A DNA stretch of 26,729 nucleotides from IMG/VR virus record IMGVR_UViG_3300012952_000109, positions 1 to 26,729 of that record; one strand, 5' to 3'. The notes below the pieces were generated by a model. It did no database searches. It was not told the origin of the DNA and saw only the letters and a list, made by a program, of their open reading frames with translations. How positions within the stretch are numbered: position 1 is the first letter of the stretch; each line of letters starts with the position of its first letter. Source of the DNA: a virus (taxonomy: Duplodnaviria > Caudoviricetes). Shown in pieces: positions 15,816 through 25,340 of the stretch. Both the position numbers and the translations under genes were made by a program.

Positions 15816-15850
15816 AAGAGGGGGTCTAACCCCTATAAGGTCCCCTCTTT
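15816..15850. terminator. hairpin/terminator between convergent genes
   Basis: AAGAGGGG (15816-15823) pairs with CCCCTCTT (15842-15849). Confidence 0.65.
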
Positions 15851-16202
15851 ACTGCTCAATACTGTAATACACAGTTAATTCTTCTCCTTTTTTTATAGGT
15901 TTTATAGACATTAATGTGTAAGTTGATTCTTTAATTTCTGGTTCTTGTTCACAAGAGTGCCAATCGTCTCCAGGTTGTTGTGGTATAACAACACAATTAG
16001 GTGTATTTGAATGATTAATGAAACCACCTAAAGGTGTACGTGTATATGGCAAAGTATCATTAACATTTTTTAGATGTGTTATACCAAAGATATAATGAAT
16101 TTTTATATCTTTTGTTGCATGTAAACCTAATCCTTCTAATTTAGACTTTTTAATAGTCACGTTATTGGGCAACGGTCTATAGTTAAATTTTATTTTTTTC
16201 AT
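15849..16202 (-). CDS. SET-domain protein (putative lysine methyltransferase)
   Basis: S...GLGL.AT.DI; GGFINHS..PNC; I..GEELTV.Y SET signatures. Confidence 0.92.
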   Translation of the reverse strand: MKKIKFNYRPLPNNVTIKKSKLEGLGLHATKDIKIHYIFGITHLKNVNDTLPYTRTPLGGFINHSNTPNCVVIPQQPGDDWHSCEQEPEIKESTYTLMSIKPIKKGEELTVYYSIEQ

Positions 16203-16498: not shown

Positions 16499-16913
16499 AA
16501 CTGCCAAACCTCGACGTGCCACTCCGTCCGAACCTAAACTGCCGTACCGTGGCGAACCAGAACGCGCGCCGCGCTAACATGCTAGACCGTAACTGCCATA
16601 CTTTACCGAACCGACCCGTGACTTACCTGACGCCGCGACACCCCAACTGCCTTAACGCACGAGGGCATACCTAACTGCGACCAACCATAACTGCCATAAC
16701 CAAGACTTACCGGACCCGAACGCACCGAGACTCGCGCCACCTAAACTGCCATACCGAGAGCCACCATGCCGAACAGCACATTACCACTCGTTACCTCACC
16801 TTGACTGCCTCACCAAAACAAACCAAACCGCATCTCGCCTGCGCCTCACCTTGACTGCCATAACGGACCGGAACACGCGGCACCTTGCGCCGGCAAAACT
16901 GACCGCAACTGCC
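16499..16913 (-). repeat. non-coding array: 9 short repeats (minus strand GGCAGTY) separating 8 variable units with 5-nt GGY-NN periodicity; candidate guide-RNA array
   Basis: Plus-strand RACTGCC at 16499, 16537, 16591, 16645, 16689, 16744, 16803, 16853, 16907; periods 38, 54, 54, 44, 55, 59, 50, 54; units parse as NN-RCC-NN-RCC; GC-rich relative to flanks; no ORF in the track. Confidence 0.93.
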
Positions 16914-17319
16914 AAAAGATAGCTAGAATTACGCTAGTGTAGGGGGGCCTGCTTTATACCCTAATCTCGGTTCTGTTTTTATTTCAAACTTACCAACGGC
17001 CCAGATCACGGTTGTAATCCTAGCTAAATGTTAGATGTAATACACAATGCTATTTTTAGTAATATCAGGTCAGAGTCGTCAAACGGTTAACAGCTCCTAC
17101 TGTTAATTTAATTTAAAATTAAGGGACTATAAATAGTTTTTATAGCCTTGAATGAGGGCTCTTTTTAAAAATCAAGTGGTTCTGCAGATTCACTATTTTC
17201 ATACGGTCAATTACTCTTCAATTGCACTATGTATTACAGAAACTGGTGTGTGACTAAGGTTAGAAGCTGACTTGATTTATTCTAACTTCTCTAGATTCAG
17301 CACATAGCCACACGGGAAC
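16914..17319 (-). ncRNA. structured non-coding leader upstream of the array (putative)
   Basis: Stems 16922-16932/17014-17024, 17087-17106 and 17248-17256/17305-17313; mismatches become G-U pairs only on the minus strand. Confidence 0.45.
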
Positions 17320-17832: not shown

Positions 17833-18425
17833 TATGCACCTACCTCGAAAGTTCCGAATGTACCATTCTTTTCAGGTCTCCATTCGCCGACTCCTACGGT
17901 TTGTCCACCGTGGTTTAACAGGTTAGCTATTTGTTCAATAGTTATTCTGTCTGCGTCAAACTTAACAAGCAGTTCTGCTTTCCAGTTTCTAAACTCTGGT
18001 CTGAACCTTAAGTCCTTACCAGTTTTTACATTTACTGGATCTTTACGCAAGACTGGTTTGTTGCTCTTGATAGAGACACACTCACCGTCTGGTGCGTTGG
18101 GCAGAACGAAAAACAAAGTTCTTGTGTCAGTCATTGCTAGACCAAGACCTTTACCTGCACGAACTGCACATTGTTTGAAAGCTGATGCTGGAAAGCCAAA
18201 GCTACCATCGTCTTGCTTGTAAGCAGACTTGATATATTCTTTCTTTGGATCTACAGCTGTACGAGTAGACTTCTTAGCCTTACCTGCACGCACATCTTCC
18301 ATTTGTTGAATGATGGTTTCTTTCATCTTATTTTGAATAAGAGGAGTTAAACCTGTTACTTTTAATTTCACCTGTTGGAAATTAGGTGGATTTATAACGA
18401 TTTTGACATCTTTAGTAGTTGCCAT
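17832..18425 (-). CDS. stand-alone Cas7-like RAMP-superfamily RNA-binding protein
   Basis: 197 aa; first strand 'LKVTGLTPLI', 'GFPASAFKQC' (compare IPGSSLKG of Cas7/Csm3 group), 'RPEF..W', C-terminal Gly-rich loop 'GGQTVGVGEWRPEKNGTFGTFEV'; GGAG RBS. Confidence 0.82.
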   Translation of the reverse strand: MATTKDVKIVINPPNFQQVKLKVTGLTPLIQNKMKETIIQQMEDVRAGKAKKSTRTAVDPKKEYIKSAYKQDDGSFGFPASAFKQCAVRAGKGLGLAMTDTRTLFFVLPNAPDGECVSIKSNKPVLRKDPVNVKTGKDLRFRPEFRNWKAELLVKFDADRITIEQIANLLNHGGQTVGVGEWRPEKNGTFGTFEVGA

Positions 18426-18988: not shown

Positions 18989-19161
18989 TTTCTCCATAAA
19001 AGGTAACCTAACAAACCTATTGCAATTGCAATAGAACCAACTACCACTAAGTGGTAGGCATAGGAAGCTAGTAACATTAAAGTTAATATAACTATGCTTC
19101 CTACAATCAGTGATGACTTATAATCATCAATGAAACTATTAAAATTTTCTTTTAATTTCAT
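18985..19161 (-). CDS. small two-helix membrane protein (58 aa)
   Basis: Manual translation MKLKENFNSFIDDYKSSLIVGSIVILTLMLLASYAYHLVVVGSIAIAIGLLGYLLWRK; ATGA overlaps at both ends. Confidence 0.65.
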   Translation of the reverse strand: MKLKENFNSFIDDYKSSLIVGSIVILTLMLLASYAYHLVVVGSIAIAIGLLGYLLWRK

Positions 19162-20288
19162 GCTACTTCCTCTAAAACTCCTTCCATGAATACGACTTCA
19201 CCAAAAGGAGCATCATGTTTTACAGTTGTAATCCATAACATTGGAAATTCAGGTGGTGAATCGGGAAAATCACCCTCTAAATCTGTGAAATAGATACAAG
19301 CTGTTGTTAATGGATAATGCTCCTGCACATATTCGATAGCAGGAACAAAACTTGTTCCACCTCTTCCTTTATATTCAAATTTCAAAGGTAGATCTTCTCT
19401 TGTGTACGTAACTGCAGAATGTACATCTGCATCGCACTGTATAAAATTAACTGCTGATGGGTTCAAATCTTGTAATATAGATGAGGTTTCATTACTGAAA
19501 TATGAAAGTTCAGAATCTGATACGGATCCAGAAGTATCTACAATTATAGATATTTCTTCTAAAGCAGGGTTGTACATACCAGGTAGATATAACCCTTGTG
19601 ATATTAACCTTCTATTAAATCTTATCCATGAATAATCAGATTTATCTTGTCCTCTTAGAAATCTCGCTAATAATATTCTCCAATCTAATATTGGAGTAAC
19701 AGCTTCTTCAATTATACTTTCTAAATTACCAGGTAAATTACCTTTAGCTTTAGCCTCATTAGCTGCAGCTACAGTTGCTACTGTCCAATCTGTTTGTGCT
19801 TTAGCAGTAGAATTTTTAGCAGAGTCTGGGTGATCTAAAACACCGCCACACTGGCCTGGATCACAACCCCATTGAGAATCATCATCTTCTTCTTCATGTG
19901 GTAGTAAAGAATAAATGTGTTCAGCACCCATATCTGCGTATGTATCGTCCCATACTCCACCTGGTGGAAGACTGAATCCTATTTCTCTTAGATTTAAATT
20001 GATTGCGTGATCACATGCTATATTCCATTTTTTATGTGTACGCTCATCTCTTCTAAATATGTGCTGTAAAACACAGTGCATAACTTCATGAGCTAGAAAT
20101 CCAATGCGTTCAAATCTATTTAATTTTAAGAACCAATGTGGGTTGTAGTAAAGATGCACACCGTCGGTAGCGCCGGTTGGAAATTTGTCTGTTTCTACAG
20201 GTTTTAGCCTCATACATAAAGTACCAAAGAAAGGTTGATCTATAATTAACTTTGCTCTGGCTTTTGTATATTCGATGTCTGCTAACAT
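19158..20288 (-). CDS. metallopeptidase + VWA-like domain protein (DUF2201 type)
   Basis: ATDG..LYYNP, HEVMH (HExxH), WNIACDHAIN, MIDAS DTSGS, GRGGTSF, YFTDLEG. Confidence 0.92.
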   Translation of the reverse strand: MLADIEYTKARAKLIIDQPFFGTLCMRLKPVETDKFPTGATDGVHLYYNPHWFLKLNRFERIGFLAHEVMHCVLQHIFRRDERTHKKWNIACDHAINLNLREIGFSLPPGGVWDDTYADMGAEHIYSLLPHEEEDDDSQWGCDPGQCGGVLDHPDSAKNSTAKAQTDWTVATVAAANEAKAKGNLPGNLESIIEEAVTPILDWRILLARFLRGQDKSDYSWIRFNRRLISQGLYLPGMYNPALEEISIIVDTSGSVSDSELSYFSNETSSILQDLNPSAVNFIQCDADVHSAVTYTREDLPLKFEYKGRGGTSFVPAIEYVQEHYPLTTACIYFTDLEGDFPDSPPEFPMLWITTVKHDAPFGEVVFMEGVLEEVA

Positions 20289-20440
20289 TTATCTTTCTCC
20301 TGTTCTAATCTTTTAGCTATATCTGCTTGTCTTCTACCTTCTTTGACACCTGCAAGGAAACTAGAAGACTGTATTTCTATAAATAATTTCGCCATTTCAA
20401 TAGCGTAATTATCCTGAGGGGCTTTAGGTTTTTTTGCCAT
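20282..20440 (-). CDS. small hypothetical protein (52 aa)
   Basis: Manual translation MAKKPKAPQDNYAIEMAKLFIEIQ...; fills the gap between neighbours. Confidence 0.6.
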   Translation of the reverse strand: MAKKPKAPQDNYAIEMAKLFIEIQSSSFLAGVKEGRRQADIAKRLEQEKDKC

Positions 20441-20442
20441 AA

Positions 20443-21108
20443 TTAATCGTCCAATAAACTTGATGTTAAAATTGAGGTATTTAGATCTGATTCCATGCCC
20501 TCGACCAACGCTCTACGGTCATCAGCTTGCTGCTTACGAACAGAGCGCTCATTTACTTTTTGTAGTTTTTCTTGAGGCACATGTGCTGCACCTGCTGGCC
20601 AAGCTTTTACGAATTGGTTTATGGTAGAACAAGCTTCTATAACTCTTTCTATTTTTTCCATATGTACATCTAAATCAGAAAGCATTCTTTCATTATTTTG
20701 AAGTTTCGTAAGTATCTCAGCATGATATGGATTTTCTTTAGGTAAAGATATTGTAGCTCCTCTGTCTTCAATGAACCTAGCTTCAAAACTCATAGACATC
20801 TGTAGGGTGTCATATAAACGATTTGGTCCATAAGAATGACCTATAGATTTGGGATCAACATAATCACTAAGATTTATTCCTTCTAAACTTAAAGAGTAAG
20901 TTGATTTTTTTGATACATCAAAACTTAAGTTCTCAAGTTCATCTAATTGTTTAACAATAGGCTCTACACGATTTTTATATTCATCTCTATAGATCCTATC
21001 TGCTAGTTCTTCTGTAAAGAACTCAAATGGTTGTGATTTTATAAAAGCTGTACGAGCGTTATTTTTAATCTCGCCTTGCACATCTCTTGACATTCTTACT
21101 GTTGCCAT
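20443..21108 (-). CDS. Nmad5-like protein, paralog 1
   Basis: MATVRMS N-terminus and 'CSTINQFVKAWPAG...VP' motif typical of Nmad5-type proteins; AAGGAG RBS. Confidence 0.6.
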   Translation of the reverse strand: MATVRMSRDVQGEIKNNARTAFIKSQPFEFFTEELADRIYRDEYKNRVEPIVKQLDELENLSFDVSKKSTYSLSLEGINLSDYVDPKSIGHSYGPNRLYDTLQMSMSFEARFIEDRGATISLPKENPYHAEILTKLQNNERMLSDLDVHMEKIERVIEACSTINQFVKAWPAGAAHVPQEKLQKVNERSVRKQQADDRRALVEGMESDLNTSILTSSLLDD

Positions 21109-21117
21109 ATTTTCTCC

Positions 21118-21903
21118 TTAATTGGTTAATTTTGAGGTTAGTATTGCTGCATTCATTTGTTCTTTAAAATCAGAATCTAATGTTTTTGCAGCAATTAAAC
21201 TTTTATGAGTCATTTCTGTATTTTTAGCTGGCCCTAACATTTGTTGTATGTATTCTTGAGGTACTATATTTTCAGCACCTGGCCACTCATCTAAGAATTT
21301 CTTTAAAGTAGTACAATTTTCTAAAAAGGTATCTAGTGTAGTTATAGAGTCTTCTACACCAAGAGATCCTTCACTGAATTGCTTAACTAATTTAATTATT
21401 TCTTTATCAGTAATGCAAAAACCATTTTGGATCGAGGTTTGATTATCATATGAGCTATACCAATAATTTTGATTAACAATCATAGGTTTTTCACCTGACA
21501 TAGGTATTTGGACTCCTACTTCTCCAGGATACCTGTCTCGCCTACCAGAATATTTGTTATCTTTTGAAGTCCAATTATCTCTAATAGAAAAGTTTTTTAT
21601 TTCTGTAACTTCTTCTCCACTAGCTAAATTTTCAATGTGATTTGGACATAAAATTACTACTAATTCTTCTGAAGAACGTTGGTTAAGCATGTTTTTACGC
21701 TTCTGTGCAGAACCGTCATAAGAATTTATTAATTTTTCAGTTAGCTGCAACCACTCTACTTCTAAAGGAGAATGTACCATTTCATATAGTTTATCGCCTA
21801 GATTTACTATATCTGGATTATTTTGAGTAGTTGCAACTAACGCCTCACGAAACTTATTTAAAATGCTAGATCTTAAATTTTTTGTCATTCTTACACTTGC
21901 CAT
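21118..21903 (-). CDS. Nmad5-like protein, paralog 2
   Basis: MASVRMT N-terminus and 'CTTLKKFLDEWPGAENIVP'; AAGGAG RBS. Confidence 0.6.
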   Translation of the reverse strand: MASVRMTKNLRSSILNKFREALVATTQNNPDIVNLGDKLYEMVHSPLEVEWLQLTEKLINSYDGSAQKRKNMLNQRSSEELVVILCPNHIENLASGEEVTEIKNFSIRDNWTSKDNKYSGRRDRYPGEVGVQIPMSGEKPMIVNQNYWYSSYDNQTSIQNGFCITDKEIIKLVKQFSEGSLGVEDSITTLDTFLENCTTLKKFLDEWPGAENIVPQEYIQQMLGPAKNTEMTHKSLIAAKTLDSDFKEQMNAAILTSKLTN

Positions 21904-21913
21904 AATTTTCTCC

Positions 21914-22942
21914 TTATAAAATTACTGTTGAATTTTTAGACGCCCAATTTTGAAAGTCTGGTTGAAATCTAAACTGCTCTTCTCTATTTATAGCGTCACG
22001 CATGAGTATTACTTGAAACTCAGGTGCCATTTTGTCGGCTATCTTACAAATAGTTTGACAGTTATCTTTAGTTGCACGTGCTGCTACTGCACCACATACA
22101 GCATAAAGTACAGAAACCTGATCTTTATCAACGTTAAAACTGTTAGGTTCTTTCATTAATTTATCTATATCAGGCATATGTTCTCTATGCTCTAAGAACG
22201 TAATCATTTCACCTGCAGGTCCATCGCCTACTAGCGAAGCAATATCGTAATATCTATTTTGTTCGTTGATATCTGCTGATTTTTCATGGTATCCCAGCTT
22301 GAATTTACGGTCTACGAACTCCCACGTTCTAGGGGTCGGAAATGCATAGTCATCTGGGTTGAAGCTGTTTAATAGGTCTGATTTCATTCTTAAGAAAGAA
22401 ATGATTGAGTCGTCTATTCCTTTTTTGTTTGCCCACTTACACCAGTCTTCTAAATTGGGACTTAATGTATAGTGTGCAAATCTATTCTTAGCCGCAGTTG
22501 GCATTTGGAATACAGCTGCTCTATCAGTAATTCTATTACCAGCTGCGATGATTCCCCAACCGTCAGGCAATTGATATTCGCCTATCCTACCTGTTAACAG
22601 TAACTGCAAAAATGCATTCTGTGTTGCTGGTGGAGCAGTTGGTAGCTCATCTATAAAAAGTATACCTGCTGAACCATCTGATTCAGTAGGAAATATACTA
22701 GGTATTGCCCATTCGGTAGTTGAAATAGCCGCATCTCTTACAATGTGAGGCACACCTCTTATATCGACTGGGTCAAATAGATTGGCTCTTAAATCTAGAA
22801 CCTTTCTACTTAAAGATTCACCTATCTGCATAGTTATATCTGACTTACCAATGCCTGGGCTTCCCCATATCATTGTATTTACATTAGATCTAAGATTTCT
22901 TACAGCTTGTGAAACTAATAACTTTGGACTTATCTCCTGCAT
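21914..22942 (-). CDS. MoxR/dynein-related AAA+ ATPase
   Basis: GSPGIGKS Walker A, DPVDIRGVP, LFIDE Walker B, AAGN sensor, NRF arginine finger, PTPRTW. Confidence 0.93.
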   Translation of the reverse strand: MQEISPKLLVSQAVRNLRSNVNTMIWGSPGIGKSDITMQIGESLSRKVLDLRANLFDPVDIRGVPHIVRDAAISTTEWAIPSIFPTESDGSAGILFIDELPTAPPATQNAFLQLLLTGRIGEYQLPDGWGIIAAGNRITDRAAVFQMPTAAKNRFAHYTLSPNLEDWCKWANKKGIDDSIISFLRMKSDLLNSFNPDDYAFPTPRTWEFVDRKFKLGYHEKSADINEQNRYYDIASLVGDGPAGEMITFLEHREHMPDIDKLMKEPNSFNVDKDQVSVLYAVCGAVAARATKDNCQTICKIADKMAPEFQVILMRDAINREEQFRFQPDFQNWASKNSTVIL

Positions 22943-24499: not shown

Positions 24500-25010
24500 T
24501 TAACCACTACCACCTCTACCACGAGCTTCGTGGAACGAAGCTAGCTGTCAACACTGTCGGATAAGTTAAGCGAAGCTAGCCGAACGGGGGCGAACCCGCA
24601 GGAGCGAGCGACTAACAGAAGCGAGCGAAGTTCGCCAAGAGATGCGAGTTATGAAAGAACGAGCGTTGACGAAGGCTACCTGAGTGGTTGTTGAATTGTT
24701 GATACACGACCGAGATTATAAGCAAAGCCTGGCTGGGCGAAGGTTGAGCGACCAAGCTTATCGTTGGGAACGAGGGAAATACATGTATGACCGAGTGAAT
24801 AGCAGAGATAGATAAGCGAGGGAGCGAACCGAGAGTTTTAGCTCGGTCAGGTACTTATAACGAGTGAGCGTACTGATGGCGAAGGCTGAAAGCCTGCGAG
24901 CGACTAACAGGAGTGAGCTTAGGAGCCATCATAGGAGCGAGCGAAGTTAAACGAAGCCCGAAGCTGAGTGTTAAGTAGCTGTCCTCGCTAAAACCTTATA
25001 AAATCGAGGG
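24500..25010. other. purine-skewed, hairpin-rich non-coding region with recurrent GAGCGA/CGAAG motifs
   Basis: No ORF in the track; GCGAGCGACTAACAG and AGCGAGCGAAGTT each occur twice; several nested inverted repeats. Confidence 0.7.
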
Positions 25011-25011
25011 A

Positions 25012-25340
25012 GTGTACCAGTAACTAGTCGTATTGTGGTACACCCGTAAGCTATTGATTATATTGATGAAACTGTCGTTGGTGTACCAGTACTAAAATTG
25101 TGGTGGTACACCCGTAAACCATTGATATTTAAGCATTATTAGAGGTTTTGTACCATTTGTACCGTTATTCTTTAAGTTTATACCTAAAAATAACTGTCTA
25201 TGATCTACGGTCTATTAAATAAATAAGCCGAAATACATGGTACATCTGGTACAGCTGGTACAACAGCTGAAAAAGTCAATAAAAACAGTAGTTTCCGGTG
25301 TACCGGTATGAATATTAGTTGGTGGTACAAGTGGTACACA
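25012..25340. repeat. cluster of about 12 GGTACA/TGTACC motifs in both orientations; candidate origin iterons
   Basis: Two ~46-bp imperfect direct repeats (25012-25058, 25082-25126), each GTGTACCA...TGGTACAC; further copies flank an AT-rich stretch at about 25165-25225. Confidence 0.7.

Follow-up and report, generated by a model that had tools for sequence, protein, structure and literature searches.

Known guide arrays include those of class 1 CRISPR systems and the phage mini-arrays that repress host defense. VIPR systems address their targets through guides in which GGY triplets alternate with dinucleotides (NN), one target base being skipped on the codon wobble position; related triplet consensuses besides GGY are allowed, and binding represses transcription from either strand (bioRxiv 10.64898/2026.04.26.720920). 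Staggered vrRNA arrays, in which guides overlap by 1 nt, are described in the legend of fig. S18 of the same preprint. In the accessible text of two VIPR preprints, the reported targets of phage VIPRs are satellites, prophages, and other VIPRs (bioRxiv 10.64898/2026.04.26.720920; 10.64898/2026.10.15.759431), and host DNA appears there as a target only in the form of the REP decoys of satellite solo guides (bioRxiv 10.64898/2026.10.15.759431). Our literature search retrieved no report of VIPR in SAR86 or of a phage VIPR directed against host genes, although the figures and supplements of the preprints could hold such reports.

Here, we analyzed a 26,729-nt stretch of a virus of the Caudoviricetes (IMG/VR record IMGVR_UViG_3300012952_000109), referred to as the window, which carries a guide array, a vipr gene, and an accessory gene (Table 1). 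On all features that can be tested in sequence, the locus is a member of the VIPR family: it is virus-encoded, combines vipr and vap without a CRISPR array, places tandem pentanucleotide repeats with a GKY consensus beside vipr, and has matched sites in which a 1-nt skip falls on the wobble position.

Table 1. Features of the VIPR locus and neighboring genes, in window coordinates
Feature	Position	Strand	Description
SET-domain gene	15849-16202		
Guide (vrRNA) array	16499..16913	(-)	8 units between 9 GGCAG-TY junctions, 5n+4 spacing
Unit 8	16506..16543	(-)	1-nt deletion here; intact sisters match last glmS codons (AKSVTVE-stop)
Unit 7	16544..16597	(-)	18/20 to tRNA-Ser(GCT); second class read as tRNA-Ile(GAT)
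Unit 6	16598..16651	(-)	Weak 18/20 match to UvrD; 3/266 genomes vs control 1
Unit 5	16652..16695	(-)	16/16 to acyl-CoA dehydrogenase gene (LASMYAHM) flanking island
Unit 4	16696..16750	(-)	No target found
Unit 3	16751..16809	(-)	22/22 match to WYL-WCX regulator (MDPIEALTFSL) in SAR86 defense islands
Unit 2	16810..16859	(-)	1-nt slip; no target found, best 16/18, E 0.2-0.3
Unit 1	16860..16913	(-)	Reads A-Q-L-G-N-A-V-P-P; 17/20 to C5 DNA methyltransferase motif X
Leader, ~407 nt	16914..17319	(-)	Between accessory gene and array
Accessory gene (vap-like), 170 aa	17320..17832	(-)	Overlaps vipr stop codon; PHROG 15946
vipr gene, 197 aa	17832..18425	(-)	RAMP-fold predicted guide-binding protein; PDB 36PP, AF2 model
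MoxR-type AAA ATPase, two Nmad5-like genes, vWA/metallopeptidase gene	19158-22942	(-)	Upstream of VIPR locus

Layout of the guide array

On the minus strand, GGCAGTY starts were located at 16913, 16859, 16809, 16750, 16695, 16651, 16597, 16543, and 16505 (n = 9), and the repeat distances given in a preliminary description of this DNA were reproduced in reverse order (54, 50, 59, 55, 44, 54, 54, 38). That description had counted by hand 67 triplet slots, 32 of them GGY (28 GGT and 4 GGC) and about 63 with a final pyrimidine; our slip-aware parse returned identical GGY counts and a final pyrimidine in 63/67 slots, and 65/67 triplets lay within one base of GGY, as had been stated for nearly all of them. 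The GGCAGTY-NN-GGT opening ascribed to every complete unit was seen in 8/8. Autocorrelation, which had been proposed as a check on the 5-nt periodicity, gave z = 4.1 at lag 5, a value reached by 0/2000 dinucleotide shuffles, along with z = 3.5 at lag 10 (reached by 2/2000) and z = 4.1 at lag 15 (1/2000). Within the 26.7-kb window, a comparable lag signal was confined to the array region. Translation of the array as a repeat protein was ruled out by the presence of 3-8 stops in each of the six frames.

Each unit consists of 7-11 pentanucleotide repeats and abuts its neighbor at GGCAG, with 1-nt register slips in units 2, 4, and 8; among related loci, 94/133 distinct units have a length of 5n+4. 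As this spacing amounts to an overlap of 1 nt, with GGCAG ending in the G that opens the next GTY, the array is probably of the staggered form. The conserved, structured 3' tail of ~40 nt that accompanies each guide in type II (SUSP1-like) systems is missing between the units. The ribozyme-interspersed form of VIPR does not apply either, as hammerheads are absent between guides, the units leave no room for them, and no Rfam match was found in the window. The organization also departs from that of a CRISPR array in that a 7-nt junction takes the place of long direct repeats and the matches are gapped rather than contiguous.

The GGY scaffold put forward earlier coincides with the published VIPR code in its alternation of triplets and dinucleotides, but the clade consensus proved to be GKY: among 856 clade triplets, 696 have G at position 1, whereas at position 2 there are 517 with G and 299 with T. 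Similarly, the proposal that the dinucleotides spell the address needs correction at the last one before GGCAG, which is A/T-biased and often mismatches the target. In the clade arrays (L002-L032), G at the first triplet position was rarer after dinucleotides ending in G (102/151 versus 594/705, p 6e-6), as if runs of G were avoided. Pieces of the array and of vipr were present as contigs in RNA libraries, where ends and strand are not readable.

Vipr, the accessory gene, and the surrounding genes

The vipr product matched SUSP1 Vipr (PDB 36PP) with a phmmer E value of 6.4e-11. Vipr proteins are RAMPs with a single RRM, a G-loop, and a thumb, and homology and fold place the protein of the window among them. 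Its AF2 model, built on a 41-sequence alignment, reached a pLDDT of 89 (32 only from the single sequence) and matched Cas7-group RAMPs, with a best E value of 3.6e-6, in a structure library extending to April 2026 that showed no Vipr entry. Residues R142, E181, W182, and R183 align with R138, D177, W178, and R179 of SUSP1 Vipr, which contact the triplet according to the accessible part of the VIPR structure preprint; judged by this alignment, the guide-binding residues of SUSP1 Vipr are kept in the Vipr of the window. Residue 32 (window 18330-18332) is Asn in 11/11 clade Viprs versus His in 28/30 distant Viprs, and this Asn is possibly linked to the relaxed GKY scaffold.

Upstream of the array, and in the same orientation, are vipr and then the accessory gene. 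A homolog of the accessory gene was present in 72/80 vipr loci; tblastn identified 33 records with homologs, located near vipr in Mycobacterium and Gordonia phages and in Cy-LDV1, and 0/33 belonged to an Escherichia phage. No informative match to the accessory gene was obtained in Pfam, PADLOC, NCBIfam, or the atlas. The leader folded better than all 100 shuffles (z = -3.6), without a blastn match in 80 related loci or a match in Rfam, and is possibly a separate structured RNA. It is lacking in the L003-type loci, where the arrays of L003-L006 and L009 begin directly after the stop codon ending the vap position.

Other genes of the window encode a family A DNA polymerase, an SNF2 helicase, and a PD-(D/E)XK protein. 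A long noncoding stretch at 24500-25300 has elevated G+C, a reversal of GC skew, and numerous CTCGC/TTCG-like and TGTACCA motifs, and is a possible origin or packaging region.

The comparison covered approximately 30 viral loci whose Vipr is 72-97% identical, the majority of them with the same type of array. One further locus (L001, 188-1300) encodes vipr and vap proteins 100% identical to those of the window in another gene context and with no array downstream, which suggests recent transfer of the vipr-vap module. Cultured phages of Gordonia and Mycobacterium smegmatis also have vipr and vap homologs; in Gordonia phage UmaThurman (L326, 2495-3895), they are located near an integrase and a repressor.

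Unit 3 and the WYL defense islands

The large collections (genomes, metagenomes, and viral sequences) were scanned at skip 1 only. As a pattern of 22 fixed bases with single-base gaps, unit 3 matched exactly in 31 metagenome contigs and in 2/185,579 genomes, both of them SAR86; by chance, 0.07-0.15 matches would be expected among these genomes. All 33 matches fell antisense within the same WYL gene, and the skipped base lay on the wobble position in 33/33, in agreement with the published rule and with the earlier suggestion that a one-base skip would let the guide ignore wobble positions. The peptide MDPIEALTFSL was read in 30/33 matches, and the other three, on short contigs, showed the same flanks in the opposite frame. 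These matches represent 26 distinct sites that differ at skipped wobble bases only, with 9/10 skipped positions varying. When WYL homologs were chosen by protein search rather than by the pattern, 6/9 genomes examined had a 19-21/22 match to unit 3. The 11 matches of a loose unit 3 pattern in the viral collection included none in the WYL gene.

The WYL-WCX regulator gene was present in 35/266 genomes of the SAR86 order; these genomes are related, so counts among them are not independent. Its neighbors in annotated loci are MzaB-E, HmaA/B, RmuC, SinI/TdeIII restriction genes, or an Hhe/ProA-like helicase. One 1.59-Mb contig (G231) has its sites for units 3, 5, and 7 within 46 kb; they surround the island of this contig and lie 430-475 kb from dnaA. 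Another genome (G001) is matched exactly by units 3 and 5 and with ≤1 mismatch by unit 8. The genes selO and polA, both matched by L003-type guides, flank the WYL island on either side in three genomes (G034, G007, and G030).

Targets of the other units

Unit 5 was found at ≤1 mismatch in 63/266 genomes (22 exact) and its reversed control in 1; 57/64 sites look like a single site, annotated as acyl-CoA dehydrogenase in G231. A sister of this unit carries an AG to TC swap, both of which encode serine in the target frame. Unit 7 was found at 18/20 in 100/266 genomes, compared with 1 for the reversed control; all six loci checked were tRNA-Ser(GCT), and tRNA-Ile(GAT) was second best in G231 (ARAGORN). 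Neither unit 6 nor unit 7 had an exact match in the viral collection, and a 16/20 match between unit 7 and the vipr gene of L068 was not significant.

The peptide read by unit 1 is one that we take to be motif X of C5 methyltransferases, at which this unit is likely aimed as judged from its matches. The 17/20 match occurred in three loci, one of which (L108) is annotated dcm. In the viral collection, the full 20-nt pattern had 0 exact matches, and its 16-nt core had 17, of which 15 read QLGNAVPP near the end of an ORF, an agreement at the level of the motif only. No unit 1 site was found in G001 or G002 at ≤3 mismatches. Unit 4 had no site in 266 genomes at ≤2 mismatches, and the single viral match of its 16-nt core lay outside any long ORF; in other strains it is replaced by other units. 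In 2/4 other marine DNA runs, array units were swapped for longer blocks.

At the final codons of glmS, 178/266 genomes matched the clade consensus of unit 8, versus 7 for the reversed control. In intact sisters of this unit, the triplets have drifted but the dinucleotides are retained, and the reverse complement is present in other lineages. Of 49 matches to this consensus in the viral collection, 38 lay at glmS C-termini, so the unit-8 guide by itself does not single out a host. According to the accessible part of PMC2918618, Tn7 has its attachment site at the end of glmS. A search for TniQ in five SAR86 genomes gave no match, and its control was likewise silent.

Downstream of SAR86 glmS, there are tandem noncoding copies of an 18-bp glmS-end motif, numbering five in G120, counting glmS itself, and six in G160. 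The copies, seen in G120 C1 at ~148,990-151,430 (L200), in G160 C6 at 62,669-64,291 (L219), and in many of L165-L184, do not vary at codon positions 1-2 but do at the wobble position, with short inverted arms and short cassettes between them; they look like an undescribed cassette array. Two sequences of the viral collection, both candidate marine satellites, begin with the end of glmS; a resolvase and a C5 methylase come next in L364 (1-4136), and a small tyrosine integrase in L362 (1-4111).

Self-targeting was rejected, with no match above 14/20 at skip 1. Targets among 80 vipr loci and the window were also rejected, as skip 1 showed no excess (29/92 at ≥80%, versus 34, 31, and 26 at other skips).

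Taken by its guide matches, the probable host of this marine phage is SAR86. A search of the 266 SAR86-order genomes for Vipr gave no match, so it is through the guides alone that phage and host are linked.

Guide matches across the phage clade

The clade-wide tests are based on 93 of the 141 units parsed, after removal of those that were slipped or out of range. An excess of gapped matches over shuffles, which the preliminary description had made a test of its proposal, was obtained on 0.95 Mb of fetched SAR86 and marine DNA: at E<0.01, 11 guides matched at skip 1 versus 0/279 shuffles, and the counts for skips 0, 2, and 3 were 1, 0, and 0. Seven of the 11 matches lie in loci that had been selected for them; the remaining four are to polA (19/20), acyl-CoA dehydrogenase (16/16), Z1 (21/24), and methyltransferase motif IV (18/20). 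At the peptide level (E<0.05), 15/93 clade guides matched versus 6/372 shuffles. On the whole G231 contig at E<0.05, skip 1 gave 8/93 versus 4, 2, and 3 at the other skips, with 0/186 for shuffles; at E<0.01, skip 0 gave 3/93, and 7/8 distinct coding sites at E<0.1 were wobble-aligned. In 480 kb of G009, skip 1 showed no excess.

Guides of sister phages match polA, selO, and aroE (annotated), Z1, and methyltransferases, with polA and aroE each reached by several sister guides. Further clade matches are presumably to tsaC, ilvC, guaA, fmt, and malate synthase, which we named from their motifs. Four phages of the VIPR clade (L015, L016, L018, and L019) have a C5-methyltransferase-like ORF of their own, which in L018 and L019 shows a 17/20 match to the motif-IV guide of a sister phage; guides of the clade may also hit related phages.

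Proposed function and alternative explanations

We lean, by somewhat more than an even chance, toward a counter-defense role in which the phage VIPR targets the chromosome of its host and silences defense islands and their conserved flanks. The array would be transcribed together with vipr-vap, and the spacing of the units suggests that the transcript may be cut at the GGCAG junctions. If the system works like SUSP1 VIPR, one Vipr per 5-nt repeat would polymerize on the guide and hide the triplet, the exposed NN would pair with double-stranded host DNA, and binding on either strand would block transcription. Such a block could repress the defense islands and the conserved genes bounding them, presumably for counter-defense. 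At the WYL site, it would have to be polar because BrxR-type WYL proteins are repressors, as described for BrxR, a WYL-family regulator, in the accessible part of PMC9122601, and silencing of the WYL gene only could raise defense. The cargo of the islands changes quickly, so guides to a shared regulator, conserved enzyme motifs, and core flanks would work across many strains.

Extended to the whole group, the proposal becomes that VIPR serves SAR86 phages of a widespread clade as a programmable anti-host weapon insensitive to wobble changes, in which a fast-changing multiplexed array is directed against an island regulator, methyltransferase motifs, core genes, and attachment sites, and Vipr-Vap shuts down islands whose cargo the phage cannot track; this broader version we rate slightly below an even chance. 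Several observations weigh against the counter-defense reading. Many targets (ilvC, guaA, fmt, tsaC, and malate synthase, as presumed above) are housekeeping genes that no observation ties to an island. The skip-1 excess on the whole G231 contig is modest, and the G009 stretch shows none. Within the array, no target was found for units 2 and 4, unit 6 stays at the level of its control, the matches of units 1 and 7 are inexact, and this copy of unit 8 has a register slip. Furthermore, glmS-end elements with recombinases exist in the viral collection, and one island, that of G214, carries an integrase.

The last two observations belong to the main rival explanation, an anti-satellite use as in SUSP1, which we consider unlikely, though it deserves serious weight. 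Guides would sit on attachment hot spots (the glmS end, tRNAs, and the guaA end) and on mobile cargo to stop excision or hijacking, and the islands would be parasites rather than immunity. The role of the glmS end in Tn7 attachment, the candidate satellites that open there, the integrase of the G214 island, and the tandem glmS-end copies, whose junctions are matched 18/18 by L003-type guides, are all in its favor, as is a precedent within VIPR in the accessible part of bioRxiv 10.64898/2026.10.15.759431. However, the mid-gene matches in polA, selO, aroE, and acyl-CoA dehydrogenase are neither attachment sites nor cargo, no guide matching a recombinase was seen, and the integrases in four genomes (G001, G002, G034, and G120) are of XerC/D size only.

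In G034, glmS, aroE, selO, and polA all lie between -18 and +57 kb of dnaA, and the distances in G007 and G009 are similar; together with the many housekeeping targets, this could instead point to a general host shut-off or replication block, in which guides on invariant core-gene codons, many of them near dnaA, form filaments that stall transcription or replication forks. This explanation appears improbable, as the sites of units 3, 5, and 7 in G231 surround the island far from dnaA, and the repeatedly matched methyltransferases, Z1, and WYL are not core genes.

A function other than silencing, in which Vipr-Vap anchors the phage DNA on the chromosome of the host or guides recombination or integration to conserved sites, would account for the classic integration sites among the targets and for both strands of the glmS site being addressed by different lineages. 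We regard it as very improbable: no integrase was annotated among the window proteins scanned, which cover part of the ORFs of a partial contig, and no prophage copy was found in the 266 genomes. That only the WYL and glmS matches are real, with the rest arising by chance between short degenerate patterns and conserved motifs, is scarcely credible, for although the patterns span 16-20 nt with mismatches, the genomes are related, and skip 0 had its 3/93 in G231, reversed controls never found a conserved site, nearly all distinct G231 coding sites were wobble-aligned, and sister guides converge on polA and aroE.

If the natural targets are chromosomal, VIPR would be an RNA-guided tool of counter-defense or host takeover, extending beyond its published virus-versus-virus role. 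The guides tie an uncultured phage clade to SAR86, and decoding arrays offers a route to host prediction for VIPR phages; guide matching also exposed the cassette array at the SAR86 glmS end. A compact array of eight guides with unit-sized natural turnover bears on guide acquisition and on tools for multiplexed repression.

Comparison with described systems

The locus resembles the type II VIPRs of SUSP1 and P. fulva in having a phage vipr with one accessory gene, GGY/NN guides, and a wobble skip, with both strands targeted and self-targets absent. In contrast to these systems, its units of 7-11 repeats are joined by GGCAG without a structured tail, the scaffold is GKY, the accessory gene has no tblastn match in Escherichia (SUSP1-like) phages, and the matched sites are host chromosomal genes rather than satellites or prophages. 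With class 1 CRISPR arrays and phage mini-arrays, it shares a RAMP backbone, a short repeat between variable guides, and gain and loss in unit-sized steps, but its code is noncontiguous, its junction measures 7 nt, and no cas genes are present. The 5n+4 spacing would fit the 1-nt overlap that a figure legend gives for staggered arrays (bioRxiv 10.64898/2026.04.26.720920). As described in the accessible text on satellite solo vrRNAs (bioRxiv 10.64898/2026.10.15.759431), guides that address host chromosomal DNA have a counterpart in those directed at REP; those are satellite-encoded decoys to repeats, whereas here the system is a complete phage one, with sites in single-copy coding genes, in a tRNA, and in an island regulator. 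TnsD of Tn7 likewise reads the last glmS codons at attTn7, conserved at non-wobble positions, although by protein-only recognition and in the service of transposition, according to the accessible part of PMC2918618. Taken together with these systems, the two-letter guide code is already published, and the host-chromosome target set appears to be new.
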